A stretch of 64,000 nucleotides of DNA from Vulcanimicrobiota bacterium. Its GTDB lineage: Bacteria; Vulcanimicrobiota; Vulcanimicrobiia; Vulcanimicrobiales; Vulcanimicrobiaceae. The DNA lies in NCBI GenBank assembly GCA_963820825.1, contig CAWGBN010000006.1, positions 256,001 through 320,000 on the forward strand, in the 5' to 3' direction. The notes under the pieces are model-generated. The model was not told the DNA's origin, ran no database searches, and saw only the letters and a list, made by a program, of their open reading frames with translations. Shown piece after piece: positions 38,935-56,754 of the stretch (the first letter of the stretch is position 1; every line of letters begins with the position of its first letter). The position numbers and the translations under genes are program-made.

Positions 38935-40209
38935 CTATTGGGGTACCGCGAATACGGTTCCGTCACCGGTCTGCCCGCTATTGCTCGTGGTCGTTCCGTA
39001 TAACGTGCCGTTGAGGTCCACGAGGGGCGCGTAGGGCGTCTCCGGATAACCGGTCGGATTCGAAGGAGGATCTTGCAAGGTGAAGACCACCTTTTCGCGT
39101 CCCGCCGGCGAGACCGAGTAGACGACTCCCCATCCGAACGTGCTGAACGGCGTGGTGCCGTAGAGCGTCCCGCCGGCGGCGATCAGTGCCGAGATCGGAT
39201 GTTGTCCGTCTTGTTTCGACGCAACGTTGGTGAACCGGTAGAGCACCTTCTCCTTGCCGTCCGGCATCACTTTGAAGATGGTGCCGCAGCCGCAGTTTTG
39301 CAAGCCGCCGTACGAGGTGGTGCCGTACAGCGCGCTGCCCATGACGGCGAGCGAACCCTCCGGACCCGCACCGTCGGGCTGACCGCTGAACGAGTAAACG
39401 ATGCTCTCCGCGCCCGAAAGCGTCACTCTGTAGACCGCGCCGTCGCCGTTCGCACCGCCCTGGCGCGTCGTGCCGTAGAGCGCATTCTTGTACAAGACGA
39501 GTCCGGAGCTGTACGTCGGGCTGCTCGGAGAGCCGGTAAAACTGTAGAGAACGCTCTCCTTCGGTTTCTTGCCGGCAAGGCTGAACTTAAAGATGCAGCC
39601 TTCGCCATCGGCGCCGCCGGCGTAACCCGTACCGTACAGCGCGTTCTTGCTCGCAACGTAAATCATATCGGAATCCGGCTCGAAGCAGTCGTTCGGGTTG
39701 GTTCCGAACGAATACAGGACCTTGTACGAGCCCGACGGCGTAATCGAGAAGATCGTGCCGTGATCTCCGGCCTGGGCTCCCTCCTGATAGGTGGTGCCGT
39801 AGAGCGTTCCGTTGACGTTGGTCAGTGCAGCGTTGGGATAGACGCCGTCGGGCGTGCCGGTAAAGCTGTGCATGACGCTCTCCACGCCGGTGGTGGTTAC
39901 CGAGTAGATCGCGCCGAGGTTATCGCTGCCTCCGGTGTACGTGGTTCCATAGAGCGTGGTGCCGACGTTGACCAGGCCGACTTGCGGACCGCCGGCGTCG
40001 GGCTGACCCTGGAAAAGGTAGATGCCGGGCCCGCTCGGGCCGGACCGTTTATGGGATCGCCCTTGCGGCGAACCGGCACGCTCCGTAGTGGGCAGCATCG
40101 AAACGCCGCCCGGCCCGATCGCCCCGGGCGTGCCGCCGAGACCGCTCTGGGCGCAGCCGGCGATGCCGAGCGCGCAGCTGAGGGCCACTAACTTGAGAGT
40201 CGAAGTCAT
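38935..40209 (-). CDS. Lipoprotein with tandem LYGTT repeats (GloVer-type repeat beta-propeller)
   Basis: Lipobox IAGC and about seven repeats of LYGT(T)...G.(V/I)(F/Y). Confidence 0.85.
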   Translation of the reverse strand: MTSTLKLVALSCALGIAGCAQSGLGGTPGAIGPGGVSMLPTTERAGSPQGRSHKRSGPSGPGIYLFQGQPDAGGPQVGLVNVGTTLYGTTYTGGSDNLGAIYSVTTTGVESVMHSFTGTPDGVYPNAALTNVNGTLYGTTYQEGAQAGDHGTIFSITPSGSYKVLYSFGTNPNDCFEPDSDMIYVASKNALYGTGYAGGADGEGCIFKFSLAGKKPKESVLYSFTGSPSSPTYSSGLVLYKNALYGTTRQGGANGDGAVYRVTLSGAESIVYSFSGQPDGAGPEGSLAVMGSALYGTTSYGGLQNCGCGTIFKVMPDGKEKVLYRFTNVASKQDGQHPISALIAAGGTLYGTTPFSTFGWGVVYSVSPAGREKVVFTLQDPPSNPTGYPETPYAPLVDLNGTLYGTTTSNSGQTGDGTVFAVPQ

Positions 40210-40315: not shown

Positions 40316-43066
40316 CTACAAGCGGTAACGCAGCCGAATCAGCGCCGTTTGAGCGAGCGGAAAGGCCTCGGGAACGTAACCGTTCGTTCCATAGTTCCAT
40401 GGAACCGCGGGCGTCCGGCCGTCGTTGGTCGGGATGCCGTTGCCCAGCGTGTAAAGACACTTCTTGCAATACTGCGACCCGTAGGCCCTTTGGTAGTAGG
40501 GATCGCCGCCGGTATATCCGGGAGGGCCGATGAGGTATGGGTTTCCCTGCAGTTGCGTCGGCGTAGCGACCGCGAGGAGATTCACGACGTCGAGCATCGC
40601 CGTCAAGTTCGGCGTAAGGTCGTACTCGACGTGGAGCGAGGTCATCCATTGCGGCGTCGTCCGCAGCGTGTTTGGATCGGCGCCCTCCGGCGTTCCCAGC
40701 GTTGCGACGTACGGGTTGGTCTGGGCGTTGAACGGCCGGTTGGGGTTCTTCAGAAAGTAATAGTTGTAACCCGGATCGACGTAGTTGTCGTTTGGAACTT
40801 GCGTCGGCACGCCCTTGATCGTCTGCCAAATCGTCGTGCCGTTTCCGTACGGGTAGCCGCTCTCGTAGGAGAGCGCCGGAGTAAGCCGCAGGCGACGGCG
40901 ATCGAACCCGATTTCGTACGACGCCGTGCTCGTAAGCGCCGGTATATAGTTTACCGGGAAGAGATGCCCGGCCAGAACCGCCGGCGCGTTCAAGTCGTTG
41001 AACGCGAACTGATAGATGCTCGACGAGAACGTCCGATTGTAGTTGGCGGCGAGCGTGAAGTGTCCCCTGCTTGCCCAGAGTTCGAGTCCGTGTGAACGCA
41101 GCTGGCCCGCGTTGGTCGGCACCCCGATGGCGTTGGGATTCTCGCCGGCGTTGGCCGCACTGCGAAAGTTCGTCGGCAGCACGTCGATGACGTTCTTTTC
41201 AAACTGCGCGAAGTACGAGAGCCGAATCTGCGTGGCGCCGCCGTGCTCGTAGGAGATCTCAAAAAGGTCGGCGGTTTCCGGGGCGAGCGAAAGGCTCGGC
41301 ACCGCACCGCCGGCGTTCGAACCCGAATCGTCGCTGCAATCCTGCGCGGGGGTACAGGTGCGCTGTACTTCCAGGGGCAGCGGCGGCGTTGAGGTGTGGT
41401 CGAAGTTGAAGCGGAATCCGTTGAGCCCGGCAAAGGTATAGGCCAGCGCGAGATGCGGGTCGACCGCGCCGTTGCCGTAGATCACGTTCGTGCTCGTGTG
41501 CGAGTGCTGACCGATGTAGCGCAGCGAGCCCATGATCGAGAAGTGCGGCGTTATGCTCCACGTATCGCTGACGTAAGCCAGGTATTGATTTAGGCGCGGC
41601 GCGGCGGTGATGATCTGCGGTACGGTCGGGACGATCTGATAGATGCTGCTCGTGTTCACGTCGTACTGCGCGCCTGCGCGAACGTCGTGCCTCTCTCCGG
41701 CCTGGTCTTCGAAATCGTAGCCGAAGCCGTCTTCGCGTTGGTATTGCGTCGAGTAGAGCGAGATGACGCCGTCCGGGAAGGAGAGATCGTCCCATTCGGG
41801 CCCGTTTGCGACGGCGCCGGTCTGTGATTGAAAGACTTGAAAGCGCCCCAGCGAGTGCCGCCAGTCGTGAACCCATTGCAGCTTCTCCACGCTGTACGTT
41901 CCGCGTGCGAGCGAGGGCGTATCCACCTGCTGATTCGGATTTGCCGGCTGGCCGGGGAATGCGACCCCCGGCGCACTGAACGTCGACCACTGCAACCCTT
42001 CGTAGGGAGAATCGTACTGCTGATAGGCTGCGGCGCCGGTGAGGAATGACGCCGAAAGATCGTCCCTCGCCGTAGCGGCAAAGTGCAGGTTCCCGGCGAT
42101 CGCGTACTGGGAGCGGGTCTGAAATCCCAAGCCGTACGTGCCCTGCTCGGCCGGGTAGAACGTATGCCCGTCGCCGTATGCAAAATACTCCTGGCCGACG
42201 GTCGACGACAGAGCGTAGCGCCACTTTAGGTCGGGCGTCGCAGCCTGTTCGCTGAACTTCATCTCACCGAGCTGCGCGCCGATTCCGTCTCCGATTTCGA
42301 AAGTGGTCTTCCCGGGATAGCTCCCAACGAGCGGGACCTCGTTGACGACACCGCCGAGCGCATTTTGACTCTCGTCGCTGTACCCGCCCAACGTCACGGT
42401 TGCGGCGCCGACGCCGGTGGTTCCGAGCTGCGCCCCGACGATGTTCCCGCCCGGCTCGGCGATCAATCCTTGTGGAATTGGAACGGAATCGTAGTCGTAC
42501 ACGGTATCCTGCACCTTGCCGCCGCGGACGATGACATTCGCAAACGTATCTTGCTGTATTCCGGGTACGTTCGATATCGCGCCTTGAACCGTGTCGCGCG
42601 AGTAATTGGCGAGTCCGGAGGACGAGGCTTGCGGAGTTCCCGCTTGCGCCTGTTCGCCTGCGACCGAGAAGACGTCGCTCGTGCTCCCGACCGCAAATGC
42701 GTGGCTCTGGGCTTGCACCTTAGCGATCTCTTTCATCGATGGACGCAGCACGAGCGCGACCTCTTCGTGTTCTCCGGGTATTACGACGATGGTAATGCTG
42801 GCCGGCTCGTAGCCCCCAAGCTCGGCTTTGATCGCGTACGTATCGGGCGTGACCCCAAGAACCGTGAACCGTCCTGCGGGGTCGGTCGTCGATCGATAGC
42901 GGCCCGACGGGGCCAGCAGCGTTACCGTGACGCCGGTCAAGGGCCTTCCGGACGTCGTCGTTACGGTGCCGAGGACCGTCCCCGACGATAACTCAGCCGC
43001 TTGCGTAAAAATCGGAACGAGTGCGATTGCGACAGACCCGCAAACCGCGCGCGCGAAAACTCGCAT
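40316..43066 (-). CDS. TonB-dependent receptor with N-terminal carboxypeptidase-regulatory-like domain
   Basis: Signal peptide, GTVLGTVT...GRF..LGV.PDTY domain, plug (NVPGI..., VRGG), beta-barrel and C-terminal LRYRL. Start set at ATG 43066 after AGAGGAG. Confidence 0.85.
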   Translation of the reverse strand: MRVFARAVCGSVAIALVPIFTQAAELSSGTVLGTVTTTSGRPLTGVTVTLLAPSGRYRSTTDPAGRFTVLGVTPDTYAIKAELGGYEPASITIVVIPGEHEEVALVLRPSMKEIAKVQAQSHAFAVGSTSDVFSVAGEQAQAGTPQASSSGLANYSRDTVQGAISNVPGIQQDTFANVIVRGGKVQDTVYDYDSVPIPQGLIAEPGGNIVGAQLGTTGVGAATVTLGGYSDESQNALGGVVNEVPLVGSYPGKTTFEIGDGIGAQLGEMKFSEQAATPDLKWRYALSSTVGQEYFAYGDGHTFYPAEQGTYGLGFQTRSQYAIAGNLHFAATARDDLSASFLTGAAAYQQYDSPYEGLQWSTFSAPGVAFPGQPANPNQQVDTPSLARGTYSVEKLQWVHDWRHSLGRFQVFQSQTGAVANGPEWDDLSFPDGVISLYSTQYQREDGFGYDFEDQAGERHDVRAGAQYDVNTSSIYQIVPTVPQIITAAPRLNQYLAYVSDTWSITPHFSIMGSLRYIGQHSHTSTNVIYGNGAVDPHLALAYTFAGLNGFRFNFDHTSTPPLPLEVQRTCTPAQDCSDDSGSNAGGAVPSLSLAPETADLFEISYEHGGATQIRLSYFAQFEKNVIDVLPTNFRSAANAGENPNAIGVPTNAGQLRSHGLELWASRGHFTLAANYNRTFSSSIYQFAFNDLNAPAVLAGHLFPVNYIPALTSTASYEIGFDRRRLRLTPALSYESGYPYGNGTTIWQTIKGVPTQVPNDNYVDPGYNYYFLKNPNRPFNAQTNPYVATLGTPEGADPNTLRTTPQWMTSLHVEYDLTPNLTAMLDVVNLLAVATPTQLQGNPYLIGPPGYTGGDPYYQRAYGSQYCKKCLYTLGNGIPTNDGRTPAVPWNYGTNGYVPEAFPLAQTALIRLRYRL

Positions 43067-43075
43067 CGTGTCTGT

Positions 43076-43163
43076 GGTCTCCTCTCGCCGGGAGACCGCA
43101 CGCTGCGAGCTCCCGGATTTAGGTTGCGAAGTAGGTGAAGAGAACGAAAGGAGGCGGGGCGCG
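43076..43163 (-). promoter_or_regulatory. Putative translational attenuator (alternative SD-sequestering pairings)
   Basis: CUCCUUUCG (43153-43145) pairs with CGAGAGGAG (43087-43079). The CCGGGAG/CUCCCGG hairpin is mutually exclusive with GGUCUCC/GGAGACC. Confidence 0.55.
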
Positions 43164-43775
43164 CAGGCCGGCACAACGGCCGGCGATTCCAAGTGAAACG
43201 CGAGTAACGCGTCGGTCGAGGGCATCGGACGCGGTGGCTCGAGATGCCGACGCGATTTGCAAGAGCCGCCGCAGAAACTCGACGATAAACGCAACGACGA
43301 CGGTGCTTGCGTTCCTGGCGACGCGAATAGCCGCGCGCAGCGCGCAGTACACGATCGTGCCGGTAAGAACGATTGCGACGAGCAAGACCAGCGTATGCGA
43401 GAGGACGACCGAGCGTGGATCGAACGGCGATATGCCGCCAAACCTGGTCTCGTAGCCTTCCATAACGACGATACAAGCCATACTTCCGCAGAACGCGCAA
43501 GCGAGATCGATCCCTCGCGAGAGAACGTTGCCCATCTCAAGCAGAAGCGGGTCGCGCGCAGCTACCCGCGCGGAGGCGAGGAATAGCGTCAACGCGAGGA
43601 TGATGATTGCGCCGAGAAAGAACGCGGGAAGGAGCGCTTCATGCTGGTTGTCGTGAAGGCACTTCCCGAGAAGGCCGGCGTTCTGCGCAGACTCCGTCGC
43701 CGCATCACCGAGTGCTGCGGCCAAAATGGCGACGGCCGCCACGGCGGTGCAGCGGACGATGGCTAAGCGCACCAT
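43119..43775 (-). CDS. Membrane leader protein with C-terminal RAPP motif (putative arrest peptide)
   Basis: Four hydrophobic segments, CLHDNQH and CAFC motifs, ends GLRAPPPFVLFTYFAT, 52 nt upstream of the TonB receptor. Confidence 0.7.
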   Translation of the reverse strand: MVRLAIVRCTAVAAVAILAAALGDAATESAQNAGLLGKCLHDNQHEALLPAFFLGAIIILALTLFLASARVAARDPLLLEMGNVLSRGIDLACAFCGSMACIVVMEGYETRFGGISPFDPRSVVLSHTLVLLVAIVLTGTIVYCALRAAIRVARNASTVVVAFIVEFLRRLLQIASASRATASDALDRRVTRVSLGIAGRCAGLRAPPPFVLFTYFAT

Positions 43776-43987
43776 CTGCTAAATGCTCGCAGAGGCATTA
43801 CCCGGCATAAAGGGGCGTTCGCTTCGCCAACGGGCCCTCCCCTCCGCATGGGCGAGATGGCGCATGCCGGCCCGGAAGGAGCCCCCAGCCCTCCAAAGAA
43901 CCCCCCGCTCCTCCCGCTCGTTTTTACGAGCGGACGCTCAGTTTTACCCAAAGCCTCTTAGCTGACAGAATCGGAGAAGCCAATCTG

Positions 43988-45052
43988 ATGCGAAAACAGT
44001 CAATTCTGACGAGCGCGGTGACGGCGGCCGTCGCGGTCGCGCTGCTATCCGCGTGCTCCAGCGGCGTCTCGCAGGGCACCAACGCCGGCCTCCCCTCAAG
44101 CGGCGCAAGCCAGAGCCGGGGAAACTTTGATCCCGCTCGCTCGGGCGTCGCACCGAAGTTCCTGGGAATGATCGGTCACGCGCACGCGGCCAAGCGTGGC
44201 GTCAGCCCGGCCTTTACCAACCACGTCGTCTACATCGACGACTTCGGGACGGGCAACGCCCAGGTGATCAAGTACAACCACTGGACGACCAACGAAGGAA
44301 CGATCAGTGCCGGCATGAACGGCCCCGACGGAAACTGGGTCGACAAGCCGGTCGCGGGCGTTCGTCACCTCTACGTTGCCAACTACGCCAATCCGAACAT
44401 CACCGAGTACGATACGGCCGGGAATCTGGTCTTCACGTACACCGCCGGCATCACCGACTCGGTCGGCGTGACGACGGATAAAAACGGCAACGTCTACGAG
44501 GCCGACTACGCCCTCGGCGCGTCGGGCGTTGGGTTCGTCAACGAGTACGCGCAGCAAAGCAACACCGTCGTGGCGACCTGTTCGCCCGGCGGCAACGTCG
44601 AGGGCGTGGCGGTCGACAAGCACCTCAACGTCTTCGTCGCCTACAACGTCACGTTCGGCACTGCCAACATCGTCGAGTATCACCATCCGTTCTCGGGCTG
44701 CAACGGCACCGTGCTGCCGGTCACGCTGGGCTTCGCCGGCGGCATGGTTCTCGATAAGCGGGGCAATCTCGTCGTCTGCGACCAGATTGCACCGGCGGTC
44801 GACATCATCGCGGCGCCGGCGTACAACGCCATCACCGGAACGCTTGGATCCGGCTGGCTCGATCCGTTCCACGTAACCATCGACATGGCGGGGACGCAGG
44901 CCTACGTGGCCGACGTCGGCGCGGGCACCGTTTCGGTTCTCACCTATCCGGGCGGCTCACCCGTGGCGACGATCAACTCGACGGGAGGTCTCATCCAGGC
45001 GGCGAGTGCGGTCGACGAGCACAATTTGGTTGTAGATAGCCAAGGCCCCTAA
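43988..45052 (+). CDS. Lipoprotein, NHL-like beta-propeller
   Basis: Lipobox LSAC and repeated GV..DK.GNV(Y/F).A motifs. Confidence 0.8.
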   Translation: MRKQSILTSAVTAAVAVALLSACSSGVSQGTNAGLPSSGASQSRGNFDPARSGVAPKFLGMIGHAHAAKRGVSPAFTNHVVYIDDFGTGNAQVIKYNHWTTNEGTISAGMNGPDGNWVDKPVAGVRHLYVANYANPNITEYDTAGNLVFTYTAGITDSVGVTTDKNGNVYEADYALGASGVGFVNEYAQQSNTVVATCSPGGNVEGVAVDKHLNVFVAYNVTFGTANIVEYHHPFSGCNGTVLPVTLGFAGGMVLDKRGNLVVCDQIAPAVDIIAAPAYNAITGTLGSGWLDPFHVTIDMAGTQAYVADVGAGTVSVLTYPGGSPVATINSTGGLIQAASAVDEHNLVVDSQGP

Positions 45053-45127: not shown

Positions 45128-46181
45128 TTAGGGCAACGTCCGAAATCGCGCGGCCATGCCGAGCTGCAGGTGCACGTTGAGGTGGCAGTGGTAGAGCCAA
45201 ACACCGGGGTTATCGGGAATCATGTCGGCCACCACCATGCCCATTGGGCCGAGCTCGGCCGTATCGGTCCGCATGCCGTTGACGACGACGGTCTCACCGT
45301 GCCAGTGGGGGGCATGAAAGTCGAAGTCACTCATCGTCGTCATCAGGTACCATCGAGTTCGCTCGCCGCGACGAACGTCGATGAGCGGCATGTTCCCGAA
45401 TATATATCCGTTGATCGAATACATTTGGTTATCGTCCACGAAACCTTGACTGCCGGGCTTCACGCCGCTCGGGTTAATCGCGGCATCGGCGACGTTCTCG
45501 TCGAAGAGCCGGCTTTGGCTCTCGTCGATCTCCGCGAACATCGTAAAGATCTCTCGGTCGACGTCGTTTGGGGATCCGTCCGGCTTGGCCGCATCGCGCC
45601 GAGTGACGACGATCGGCCCCACGAGACCGGTGTTTACGTCGCGCAGCTCGTCGGTGTGCGAGTGATACATCCAGAGAATCGAGCTCGGATCCATCGGCCC
45701 GGGCCCGGACCGCTCCGGAACGTCGAAATGGTAGGTGTACGTCGCCCCGGGAGCGACGGTGTCGCCGGGCTTATCGCCGGAACCGCTTCCGTCGCGATAC
45801 GGCGCACCCTCGGAGGCCTTCAGGTAGCGAAGACCGTGCACGTGGAAGCTCAGCGGCAAGTGCGAATTACTTCTTAAACACCACGACCACCGAATCGCCG
45901 ACGACGGCGTGGATCGGCGGTCCCATCGTGCCCATGTAGCGCTGATCCGCGGGGCGCGGCTCGAGCGTTGCGAACGTCGAGTCGGTGTAGCCGTGGTAGA
46001 CCACCTTATGGTAGGCGAAGCCCAGTTGAAACTTGGCCGGTTTCAACGGTGCCCCGGTGAGAACGTTCGTGCCGCTCGGAGCATAGTTCCAGACGACCTC
46101 GTCGGCGGCAATATAATACGTGCGCTCCGCCGCCAGTGCCGGCGTCGTGCAGAGCAAGACGAGAGAGATTATTCGAAGCAT
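45128..46181 (-). CDS. Secreted two-domain multicopper oxidase (1-nt frameshift near 45870)
   Basis: Signal peptide and HVHG, WMYHSH, HAPHWHG, WLYHCHLNVHLQLGM copper motifs. Confidence 0.88.
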
Positions 46182-46185
46182 GTCC

Positions 46186-46377
46186 TCACACTTTCGGAGC
46201 CTGTTCGTCGGCGAGCCGCGCGGCAATGAAATCGGCAACTTCGCGCGTCTCCGTCACGAAGAGACGCTTGCCTGACGTTACCTCGTGGACCGAGCCGCGC
46301 CAGTGCGCGTCGCCGCAGGATTCCTCGGTCAGCCACATGCGAACGAGGAAGGTGACGTCTCGCCGTTTGGGTTTCAC
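46186..46377 (-). CDS. Small hypothetical protein (63 aa), probably leaderless
   Basis: GTG 6 nt after TATGCT. FLVRMW...WRGSVHEVTSGKRLF pattern. Stop lies 4 nt before the oxidase start. Confidence 0.7.
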   Translation of the reverse strand: MKPKRRDVTFLVRMWLTEESCGDAHWRGSVHEVTSGKRLFVTETREVADFIAARLADEQAPKV

Positions 46378-55464: not shown

Positions 55465-56754
55465 CTACGGACCGGGACCGAACTCCGCCGTGAACAAATA
55501 GACGCCATCTTCGGGAACGCAGTTCACGAGGCGGGGCGTATACGTCGATTCCTCGGCAGCCTTGAGCACGGCCCGATCCAGGTTGGCGTTGCCACTCGAG
55601 TGATAGACTCGAGCGCCTGCGGCCTTCCCGTTAGCGCCGACTTTGACGGCAACGATCGCCGAAACCTTATGCGTCGGCCACTCCGATTTCGGCAGGTGGG
55701 GCTCCGCGGGGTTGAGTGCTTGCGGCTCGGCGTTTGGATCTTTGCATGATACTGCAACGGTAGCCGCACCGTTCGTAGTAAGGGCATTGGCTCGCACCGG
55801 CACGGGAGCAAGACTCTGCAAGGCGACGGTCATGGCGACAAAGAGCATCGTAATCCCTCCAACGGCAGCGTAGTTGAGCTTGGCATCGGTCGGCGAACGG
55901 TCGGCCATGAGGCGCTCGATCCGGGTGACCAGCGAATGCCGTGAACCGAGCGCGCTCGGCGTCAGAAGCGGCGTGGCCGGCTCGTGGATGCGACGACCGA
56001 GCTGGGCGAGGCAGTTCGCGTAAGCGTGCGGCTCGCCAAGGCGTCCAACGGCCCAATCGTCGCAGGCGGCTTCGCGTTCGGCGGCGAGCCGACGGCCTAC
56101 GAAGTAGATCCACGGATTCCAAAAGAACGCGGCTTCGAGAAGTCGTTCCAATGCATTGGTCGTAACGTCACCGCGGCGAACGTGCGCCAGCTCGTGTTCG
56201 ATCGTGCATTGGAGATCTGCGGGCGAGAGCGCCTCCAGCAACTCGACCGGAATTGAAATTGCCGGCGCGAGTATACCGGCTGCGATCGGCATCGATAGAT
56301 CGCTCGAGGCAAGAACCGGGACGCGGTCGACCTGGGAAACGAGCTGTGCGCCATGCCGGAGCCGCGCGATGCGCGAGTAGCTCACCGATAAGCGTGCAAG
56401 GGCGAGCGCCGTTCCGGCGATCCAGAACGCAGTAATCGACCAAACGATGCTCGGGGCGCCGAGTATCGACGGTAACGCAAGCCGGCTCGCGTTTTGCTCG
56501 AGGGGACCGAAGGGGAGCAGCGAGAATGCGGGGCGACCGAATGGCGCGCCGTGCTCGAGCGCTGCAAAAATCGGCAAATGCCAATGGACGGTCGTCGACA
56601 GCAGCGGTACGGCGGCGAGCGAGAGTGCCGTTACGAACCATGCGGCGTAACGGGTCGCGGCGTTTCGCACGGGGACGAAGTGCAGCGTTAGGACGGTCAC
56701 GCCGGCGATGAGGGCGCCCTGCCAGAGTGCGCTTATGATGAAGGAGAGGATCAT
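55465..56754 (-). CDS. BlaR1/M56-family metallopeptidase fused to a TonB C-terminal-like domain
   Basis: HELAHVRRGD, FFWNP and REAACD motifs. C-terminal VKVGANG...SSGNANLDRAVL. Confidence 0.88.
   Translation of the reverse strand: MILSFIISALWQGALIAGVTVLTLHFVPVRNAATRYAAWFVTALSLAAVPLLSTTVHWHLPIFAALEHGAPFGRPAFSLLPFGPLEQNASRLALPSILGAPSIVWSITAFWIAGTALALARLSVSYSRIARLRHGAQLVSQVDRVPVLASSDLSMPIAAGILAPAISIPVELLEALSPADLQCTIEHELAHVRRGDVTTNALERLLEAAFFWNPWIYFVGRRLAAEREAACDDWAVGRLGEPHAYANCLAQLGRRIHEPATPLLTPSALGSRHSLVTRIERLMADRSPTDAKLNYAAVGGITMLFVAMTVALQSLAPVPVRANALTTNGAATVAVSCKDPNAEPQALNPAEPHLPKSEWPTHKVSAIVAVKVGANGKAAGARVYHSSGNANLDRAVLKAAEESTYTPRLVNCVPEDGVYLFTAEFGPGP

Follow-up and report, generated by a model that had tools for sequence, protein, structure and literature searches.

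What might a small membrane protein that ends in a ribosome-arrest motif be doing directly upstream of a gene for a TonB-receptor-like barrel? This question is raised by a stretch of 64,000 nucleotides (nt) of DNA from a soil Vulcanimicrobiota (Eremiobacterota) bacterium (assembly GCA_963820825.1, contig CAWGBN010000006.1, positions 256,001 to 320,000), which we will henceforth refer to as the window and in whose own numbering coordinates are given. Here, an open reading frame (ORF) of 218 amino acids (aa) that carries the tetrapeptide Arg-Ala-Pro-Pro (RAPP) close to its C-terminus is followed on the same strand by a 916-aa receptor gene. We found a leader gene whose RAPP motif and pairing with the receptor gene are conserved, whose codons next to RAPP are constrained, whose mRNA pairs in a position-specific manner with the ribosome-binding site (RBS) of the next gene, and whose paralogs are reused before other cell-envelope genes. 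We consider it probable that the ORF is an arrest leader, i.e., that a ribosome held at RAPP would unmask the RBS of the receptor gene. The coding features concerned are:

43775..43119, minus strand: leader ORF, 218 aa, recognised as an ORF with coding-type G+C at third codon positions (GC3)
43163-43152, minus strand: RAPP codons CGC GCC CCG CCT, the presumed arrest site, read from the sequence
43121-43119, minus strand: leader stop codon TAA, read from the sequence
From this stop to the ATG at 43066, minus strand: leader-receptor spacer of 52 nt, read from the sequence
43066..40316, minus strand: receptor gene, start codon ATG at 43066, encoding an outer-membrane protein of 916 aa made up of signal peptide, CarboxypepD_reg domain and TonB-dependent-receptor-like barrel

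The leader ORF, its RAPP codons, the spacer and the receptor ORF, as well as three RNA pairings described below, all lie where the original prediction, an earlier reading of this DNA, had placed them.

Judging from its composition and its relatives, the leader is a genuine gene of a previously unnamed protein family that neither Pfam nor NCBIfam covers. Specifically, its G+C content at the three codon positions (0.65/0.50/0.72) is of coding type, compared with 0.60/0.49/0.77 for the 916-aa receptor ORF, in a window with 64% G+C overall. As homologs begin with MRFA, translation may in fact start at the GTG at 43772. A search of 5.8 billion clusters returned 69 homologs, giving 70 proteins with the window's own; nearly all are 216-217 aa long, they are 33-57% identical, all are annotated as “hypothetical” and none has a Pfam domain. 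The leader protein itself matched zero families in Pfam (E<=0.01), the DUF2946 profile included, and zero in NCBIfam, which bears out the earlier suggestion of a new leader family distinct from CruR (see below). A profile search of 1.84 billion representatives likewise gave just 88 matches. In a 46-sequence alignment, the invariant positions were D24, D42, H45, P50, L62, E106, E109, T110, F112, G113, G114, P117, F118, D119, S122, H127, L131 and R205-A206-P207-P208, and the stretch MEGYETRFGGxSPFDPRSVVLSH was almost invariant across homologs.

The RAPP motif is the hallmark of this family. It was found in the last 50 residues of 66 of the 67 homologs of at least 190 aa, followed by exactly 10 residues in 48 of these 66, and the sole homolog without it looks truncated. 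Among the more distant representatives of at least 190 aa matched in the profile search, RAPP lies near the end in 54 of 67 and RSPP in 3; most of the remaining RAPP-less ones match only the N-terminal third of the profile. Proteomes are depleted of RAPP and RGPP, and the two motifs are enriched towards the C-terminal end of small proteins that are secreted or reside in membranes and whose genes lie upstream of TonB-dependent receptors, among others (PMC12992588, Fujiwara 2025). One case is CruR (Bp2923, DUF2946) of Bordetella pertussis, the leader of cruR-bfrG, which stands before a TonB-dependent transporter; mutants of its RAPP abolish downstream expression and copper relieves the arrest (PMC9426467). 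When CruR arrests, Pro-Pro occupies the P and A sites of the ribosome (PMC12992588), and by modelling on its toeprint we presume that in the present leader the first Pro codon would likewise occupy the P site and the second the A site (PMC12992588). Positions written with a sign in what follows are counted from this P-site codon.

The leader is also tied to its downstream gene. Among loci of the window's genome and of genomes of the same genus, 20 of 20 have a receptor ortholog directly 3' of the leader, with spacers of 44-58 nt, and when further genome and metagenome records were added we obtained 49 distinct RAPP-to-start stretches with a barrel gene no more than 100 nt downstream. The adjacency that had been predicted is thus conserved both among close relatives and over 49 unique loci. 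The genes flanking the leader-barrel pair, by comparison, showed no conservation across the loci compared. Some loci are irregular: in L058 and L059 the leader keeps RAPP but its longer tail runs into the barrel start, the leader of L061 is frameshifted and its barrel gene fragmented, L070 and L077 are interrupted by contig ends, and L078 is not a leader. A scan of 42900-44100 gave 0 promoters and 0 terminators, with no terminator-like site between leader and receptor.

We call the downstream product a TonB-receptor-like barrel of CarboxypepD_reg (Oar-like) architecture, an identity that comes through its orthologs and paralogs. The window's own protein matched PF13620 (CarboxypepD_reg) at 3.2e-14 and nothing else in Pfam; it had no match to PF00593 (TonB_dep_Rec) even at E<=10, which speaks against the identity, and none to solved transporters by sequence or by profile. 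Plug (PF07715) was matched neither by the window copy nor by any of 26 receptor orthologs. On the other side, 6 of the 26 orthologs matched PF00593 (best 4.8e-15), NCBI annotates orthologs as “TonB-dependent receptor”, and residues 23-916 of the receptor (894 residues) are 51% identical to the barrel of paralog locus L090, which passes PF00593 (63.7 bits, cut-off 27). The predicted TonB-dependent receptor therefore stands on its relatives and not on the domain matches of the window copy. The CarboxypepD_reg domain is followed by a PGV...VRGG stretch that, to the eye, resembles a plug, and the architecture as a whole is like that of Oar. The genome has four TonB_C and two ExbD matches above cut-off.

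The mRNA between RAPP and the receptor start can form three pairings around the Shine-Dalgarno (SD) sequence:

43153-43145, minus strand: anti-SD segment CUCCUUUCG, at +4 to +12, under a ribosome stalled at RAPP
43087-43079, minus strand: receptor SD region CGAGAGGAG, whose GGAG core (43082-43079) lies 12 nt upstream of the ATG
43116-43088, minus strand: hairpin 1:2, CCGGGAG (43116-43110) with CUCCCGG (43094-43088), directly after the stop, read from the sequence
43097-43076, minus strand: hairpin 2:3, GGUCUCC (43097-43091) with GGAGACC (43082-43076), burying the SD, read from the sequence

Pairing of CUCCUUUCG with CGAGAGGAG comprises 8 Watson-Crick pairs and one G.U pair, and the unconstrained minimum-free-energy fold contains this stem with the CCGGGAG/CUCCCGG hairpin nested inside. 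Hairpins 1:2 and 2:3 are mutually exclusive because they share CUCC, so that hairpin 1:2 holds the segment that could otherwise sequester the SD; the same three-segment layout was found in 23 loci, which we refer to as type A. A further group, type B, has a different arrangement:

Type A RNA, 23 unique loci including the window: 10 residues after RAPP, four segments
Type B RNA, 18 loci: 7 residues after RAPP, CGCUCCCA (+10 to +18) pairing with UUGGGAGCG, with a GC-rich hairpin between

In type A, segment 0 consists of the codons at +6 to +21 (usually CGU UCG AUU .. CCUC), segment 1 (CCGGGGAG) lies directly 3' of the stop, segment 2 is GAUCUCCCCG, and segment 3 (GGAGAUCGAACG) is the SD plus its flank; segment 0 can pair with 3 and 1 with 2, or alternatively 2 with 3.

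To locate the preferred partner of the SD, sliding 16-nt windows of each leader were scored as duplexes against the receptor RBS. In both types the duplex minimum fell at window starts +3 to +9, with values of -15.1 kcal/mol over the 23 type A loci and -19.1 kcal/mol over the 18 type B loci, while other leader positions mostly lay at about -5 to -12 kcal/mol; this position specificity is qualified in type B by secondary minima far upstream (-15 near -123 and -16.2 near -102). The RAPP-proximal window was among the best 5% of its leader in 38 of 49 loci. Duplexes between segments of cognate or same-type pairs scored -18.0 to -20.4 kcal/mol, compared with -12.1 and -12.3 for cross-type pairs and -13.0 for shuffled sequences. 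By these scores, the receptor SD finds its best partner in the segment that would lie under a stalled ribosome, and it does so with different sequences in the two subtypes. RNAalifold consensus structures showed the long-range stem in type B, and hairpin 2:3 together with a pairing of the start codon in type A.

Codon choice next to RAPP points in the same direction. In type A, Arg at codon +2 is CGT in 18 of 19 cases (background 12%), Ser at codon +3 is TCG in 20 of 20 (40%) and Ile at codon +4 is ATT in 14 of 15 (25%). In type B, Leu at codon +4 is CTC in 18 of 18 (background 42%) and Pro is CCA in 11 of 17 (10%), and the third base of codon +3 is G in all 18 loci through six different amino acids. 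As read from these alignments, such fixation of synonymous codons is a constraint at the level of the RNA.

What the conserved body of the leader might contribute was approached through its predicted structure. An AlphaFold2 (AF2) model built with the homolog alignment had a mean predicted local distance difference test (pLDDT) score of 82.9, with helices at 2-32, 48-68 and 84-109, a long one at 120-191, and a tail (192-218) of low confidence. Hydropathy gave four transmembrane (TM) windows, in agreement with the model and with the earlier claim of four TM segments. By their Lys and Arg counts, the N-terminus, loop 2 and the C-terminal tail are assigned to the inside, and the two other loops (1 and 3) to the outside. 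The leader is accordingly modelled as a four-TM inner-membrane protein with both ends in the cytoplasm (N-in/C-in) and a predicted disordered cytoplasmic tail that bears RAPP. Because loops 1 and 3 are assigned to the outside, the invariant acidic and His residues (D24, D42, H45, E106, E109, D119 and H127) would face the periplasm. A Foldseek search of the model against the PDB gave nothing at E<=0.001. The top matches in a wide VIA-align search were TM domains of FtsX/MacB-type ABC permeases (YbbP, FtsX, BceB, LolCDE, YtrF and MacB), at Z scores of 6.3-8.5 over 141-157 aligned residues with root-mean-square deviations of 4.2-6.1, which is below the level that is meaningful for helical bundles. 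For leader residues 1-170, such permeases, which work by mechanotransmission, made up 9 of the 12 top rows, a result that is consistent but too weak to claim. The ESM Atlas yielded unnamed clusters, mostly from Vulcanimicrobiota and one from Actinomycetota, as a feature match that serves as a lead and not as a test of homology.

Other outputs are found among the paralogs of the leader. Of 301 genomes of the phylum scanned with a profile, 107 were matched (window's family, 98 of 206; a second family, 8 of 22; the 19 other families sampled, 0 of 72), with many weaker second matches per genome, and 20 paralog loci were retrieved for inspection. At 19 of these 20 loci we found proteins of about 205-230 aa that end in ..[IV]GERAPP plus 3-6 residues and align with the leader across all four helices. 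Where the next gene encodes a protein of 373-434 aa, it is a LytR_cpsA_psr protein in 6 of the 6 scanned; at nine further loci the next gene encodes a protein of 372-378 aa. The remaining next genes encode a bestrophin-like protein (one locus) or a CarboxypepD_reg barrel (three loci), and at one locus none was found; two of the barrels pass PF00593 and the locus of the third is without RAPP. The LytR-CpsA-Psr (LCP) cell-envelope genes are directly preceded by one leader-paralog subfamily (..IGERAPPxxxx; L079-L089, L091, L092, L095 and L097). An alignment of 42 superfamily sequences with 31% mean column identity retained as invariant only one Asp, two Glu and R-A-P-P. A search with this alignment listed 116 more proteins; among those listed, all 112 of at least 190 aa have RAPP in the last 40 residues, with four residues following it in 85 of the 112. 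The predicted conservation of a C-terminal RAPP thus extends from the full-length homologs to the listed members of the superfamily.

In the paralogs, too, the Pro-Pro codons and the next few can pair with the SD of their own downstream gene, as in the 14-base-pair CCUCCCAUAGCCGC:GCGGCUAUGGGGG of L085 or CCCCCUAUAGCUG:CAGCUAUAGGGG of L097. Their duplex profile has its minimum at -3 to 0, with -14.6 compared with about -9 kcal/mol elsewhere, and lies in the best 5% at 11 of 18 loci. This third, unrelated sequence solution at the same place is, on the sequences compared, the strongest argument that the stall-covered segment would act as an anti-SD. A broader proposal is possible and we offer it tentatively: that these proteins form a lineage-specific superfamily of co-translational sensors with one four-TM chassis, invariant carboxylates at the periplasmic face (D..E, D..H, ME..E) and a RAPP stall; that the Eremiobacterota (Baltobacteraceae) have wired this chassis to at least three envelope outputs, namely Oar-like TonB-receptor barrels, LytR-CpsA-Psr glycopolymer ligases and a bestrophin-like channel, re-evolving the Pro-Pro-proximal codons each time as an anti-SD; and that the nascent, inserted domain might sense something in the periplasm or the membrane, for instance a divalent or trivalent cation or the charge of the envelope, and turn it into a force that pulls on the stalled chain. 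No paper that treats both arrest peptides and LytR-CpsA-Psr proteins was found, nor a published RAPP leader before an LCP gene.

These observations suggest the following sequence of events, in which stalling, its relief and the direction of switching (ON or OFF) are what we infer. A ribosome translating the leader would stall while its P site holds Arg-Ala-Pro-tRNA and its A site Pro-tRNA, covering the next ~10-15 nt, which in the free mRNA would be base-paired with the receptor SD region. With the anti-SD thus occupied and hairpin 1:2 intact, the receptor RBS would be open and the receptor made (ON). Once the arrest is released, the ribosome would reach the stop codon and melt hairpin 1:2, upon which the freed segment could form hairpin 2:3 over the SD, or the anti-SD:SD stem could re-form, and the receptor would be OFF. 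The trigger for release would most likely be pulling force, arising as the inserted four-helix domain folds or binds a ligand at the periplasmic face.

We modelled three states of the mRNA, i.e., free, stalled at RAPP (nucleotides through +15 removed) and with a ribosome at the stop codon, and calculated the cost of opening -15 to +3 of the receptor RBS as a mean per type:

Type A, opening cost in kcal/mol: free 13.9, stalled 9.3, terminating 17.1
Type B, opening cost in kcal/mol: free 12.2, stalled 7.5, terminating 5.9

The modelled type A means fit the three-state logic of the original prediction, in which stalling helps and run-through locks the site; the window's own copy does not follow it. 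Across loci, the probability that the SD is unpaired was low in the free mRNA (mean 0.07-0.13).

Several results weigh against the proposed mechanism. In the window's own copy, the opening cost does not drop on stalling (11.7 free, 12.2 stalled) and the accessibility of the SD falls instead of rising, from 0.50 to 0.35. Averaged by type, the unpaired probability of the SD rises on stalling by a small amount, from 0.12 to 0.24 in type A and from 0.13 to 0.33 in type B. At equilibrium, hairpin 2:3 of type A re-sequesters the SD despite the stalled ribosome, so that the ON state would need kinetic persistence of hairpin 1:2. At a fixed window, 19% of 375 co-directional ORF pairs from this genome match or surpass the window's pairing of -16.1 kcal/mol, and 51% reach this value when any of 13 windows in the last 60 nt may count; the pairing is therefore not significant alone. 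In the wider set, mononucleotide shuffles were outscored at p<=0.05 in just 27 of the 49 loci, the loci are related and their counts hence not independent, and in L025 and L026 RAPP is kept with no barrel gene downstream. Covariation gave a divided answer: pair variants of type A hairpin 2:3 are kept (GGUCUCC/GGAGACC vs GAUCUCC/GGAGAUC), whereas RNAalifold found few compensatory changes within a subtype (1 of 15 pairs in type A, 4 of 23 in type B). Finally, of the His and Cys motifs pointed out in the original prediction, the Cys part fell away. The Cys of CLHDNQH (C39) is present in 1 of 46 sequences, i.e., in the window copy alone, and the two cysteines of CAFC (residues 93-96) are kept in 20 and 26 of 46; the sole invariant residues of the CLHDNQH stretch are D42 and H45, and H45 and H127 are each present in 46 of 46. 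Metal sensing through the Cys motifs was rejected because the cysteines are not conserved across homologs. Since pairings as strong as the window's are common in the genome background, support comes from the recurrence of the pairing at the same place in homologs, and the case rests on the family and not on the window's single sequence.

Could a real stall act on transcription instead? CruR does so, its read-out being Rho-dependent termination over a 162-nt spacer and not SD masking (PMC9426467), and by analogy a stalled ribosome here might shield a C-rich stretch resembling a Rho utilisation (rut) site, with release leading to termination and the SD pairing being secondary. The genome encodes Rho (634.8 bits, above cut-off), the highest excess of C over G in the leader is reached by 40-nt windows starting at -10 to 0 (mean +0.23 over 49 loci), and in the window the 45 nt that begin with the first Pro codon and end 6 nt beyond the stop contain 19 C and 5 G. 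Such C-richness, however, is expected anyway from the anti-SD and the Pro codons, the spacer is short (44-60 nt, compared with 162 nt in cruR) and filled by conserved hairpins, and a pure Rho model has no role for the position of the SD complementarity, its cross-type specificity or the alternative SD hairpin. We thus regard control by Rho as unlikely to be the correct account, although a Rho read-out and SD unmasking can coexist.

The other alternatives question the signal or the stall itself. The stall might be constitutive and free of any signal, each round of leader translation pausing at RAPP and opening the receptor RBS, such that a fixed coupling sets the ratio of leader to receptor and the four-TM protein has a membrane function of its own. 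A four-TM body that is larger and far more conserved than a mere targeting signal, with a confident AF2 model, would suit this, as would the robustness of RAPP arrests, which are resistant to elongation factor P (PMC12992588). Known RAPP leaders are conditional, though (SecM-type, CruR); in the paralogs this chassis goes with outputs unrelated to one another (LCP enzymes, barrels and a bestrophin-like protein), which suits a sensor better than a stoichiometric partner; and hairpin 2:3 of type A is sensible only if stalled and non-stalled passages differ in output. We hold a signal-free stall to be quite unlikely. Very improbable, in our view, is that RAPP is kept for a role in the mature protein, e.g., as a docking motif, that the SD pairing is ordinary GC-rich complementarity and that the genes are neighbours since their products cooperate. 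The window pairing, unremarkable against the genome background, is what one would then expect; nevertheless, RAPP is invariant in a superfamily with 31% mean column identity even though the tail around it is predicted to be disordered and is variable, all members have only a short stretch between RAPP and the stop, the synonymous codons fixed beside RAPP are rare ones, and in three subfamilies that differ in sequence the complementarity is highest at one position.

If the leader does unmask the receptor RBS by arrest, it resembles several known systems. With CruR it shares its position as an upstream ORF, a conserved C-terminal RAPP, the operon with a TonB-dependent transporter or, here, a TonB-receptor-like barrel, and the proposed relief by ligand-driven folding of the nascent chain. 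CruR, however, has ~145 aa, a signal peptide, poor structure, an invariant CXXC 45 residues before RAPP, and RAPP 3 residues from its end. The present leader has 218 aa, four TM segments, no DUF2946 match and RAPP 10 residues from its end; its CAFC lies ~110 residues before RAPP with no conserved Cys pair, and its spacer is 44-60 nt, with the anti-SD under the stalled ribosome. A likeness in build is offered by Streptomyces lividans SLIV_18480, SLIV_27375 and SLIV_33595 as well as SLIV_33605, small four-TM proteins with a C-terminal RAPP or RGPP (PMC12992588), which likewise lie upstream of co-directional genes other than Sec/YidC genes (PMC12992588). Of the S. lividans RAPP/RGPP candidates, 7 of 7 stalled, the four with four predicted TM segments among them (PMC12992588), and arrest was demonstrated both in vitro and in vivo (PMC12992588). 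The S. lividans proteins, likened here by their description, differ in phylum and in their downstream genes (extracytoplasmic function sigma factor, thioredoxin-like and copper proteins; PMC12992588). The one hint of homology between them and the present family is the Actinomycetota cluster from the ESM Atlas, which is no more than a lead.

With SecM and MifM, the mRNA stem that conceals the next gene's SD is opened by the stalled ribosome, and pulling force relieves the arrest. The leader is like the Sec/YidC monitors SecM, MifM, VemP, ApdA and ApdP in that a membrane-targeted nascent chain would stall near its C-terminus (PMC7897499, PMC10951233); ApdA and ApdP stall at RAPP and SecM at RAGP (PMC7897499, PMC10951233). 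The genes downstream of those monitors encode the machinery that pulls on them, whereas the present outputs are an outer-membrane receptor and, in the paralogs, LCP or bestrophin-like proteins. Since receptors and LCP enzymes are not translocation machinery, the loop would not be a feedback on translocation.

As in the RAPP-leader class generally, the protein is shorter than 300 aa, has a conserved C-terminal RAPP and contains TM segments; the conserved co-directional gene and the SD pairing of the stall-covered segment further support a dependence of that gene on arrest, as far as can be read from the sequences. The kind of element is already known (CruR; Fujiwara 2025); most likely, the present family is a new one of this kind, lineage-restricted and with an unusually large and well-conserved sensor body. 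The main text of PMC12992588 does not mention Eremiobacterota, LCP genes or mRNA pairing, and those of its supplementary files that were searched do not mention these taxa, although the family may be listed there under another label. Literature joining Eremiobacterota with TonB-dependent contained none on this element. RAPP leaders upstream of genes other than sec and yidC have been catalogued only recently (PMC12992588), and that study poses as an open question whether arrest controls the downstream genes and by what mechanism (PMC12992588). The present comparison suggests an answer for one mechanism, in which the nucleotides hidden by the stalled ribosome would mask the RBS of the next gene, in three subfamilies with unrelated sequences. 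It would also mean that a stalling sensor has been reused as a module before cell-envelope enzymes of the LCP family, and would provide a first regulatory handle on outer-membrane uptake in Eremiobacterota.

Further observations concern the surroundings of the leader and the gene pair. Elsewhere in the same genome, two other ORFs with a C-terminal RAPP were considered and set aside, as they look like spurious Arg-rich frames without TM segments. L025 and L026 are orphan second copies of the leader, ending in RAPPQ[VA]A with no barrel within 2.7-6 kb downstream, and the metagenome-assembled genomes that carry them also hold a complete leader-barrel pair (L029 and L040). At many homologous loci (type A, e.g., L007, L028 and L065) a promoter-like TTTGCGA, spaced by ~17 nt from TGCTAAAA, lies just 5-10 nt before the leader start, so that a leaderless or almost leaderless mRNA may serve for translation of the leader; no consensus promoter was found upstream of the window's own copy (43776-43830).

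Directly 3' of the barrel gene (window 38935-40209, minus strand) lies the gene of a TIGR03803 (3.5e-67) GloVer “choice-of-anchor” tandem-repeat protein, homologs of which are found upstream of the leader in L030, L031, L034 and L057. In a divergent subgroup (L047, L052, L059 and L060), the pair adjoins a pyrroloquinoline quinone (PQQ)-dependent dehydrogenase of the methanol/ethanol family (TIGR03075, 602.9 bits), together with a cytochrome c, a DUF5069 protein and an NAD-binding dehydrogenase; these PQQ-dehydrogenase neighbours are a lead, with uptake related to lanthanides, calcium or PQQ as a possibility. Of the four TonB_C matches in the genome, one falls inside the window, at ~55480-55659 on the minus strand (contig 311480-311659), in an open frame of 434 aa. 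Also within the window (45128-46238, minus strand), a multicopper oxidase seems to be broken up over two neighbouring ORFs (123 aa and 243 aa), possibly through a frameshift or an assembly error or as a pseudogene, and the 243-aa ORF matches Cu-oxidase_3 and Cu-oxidase_2.

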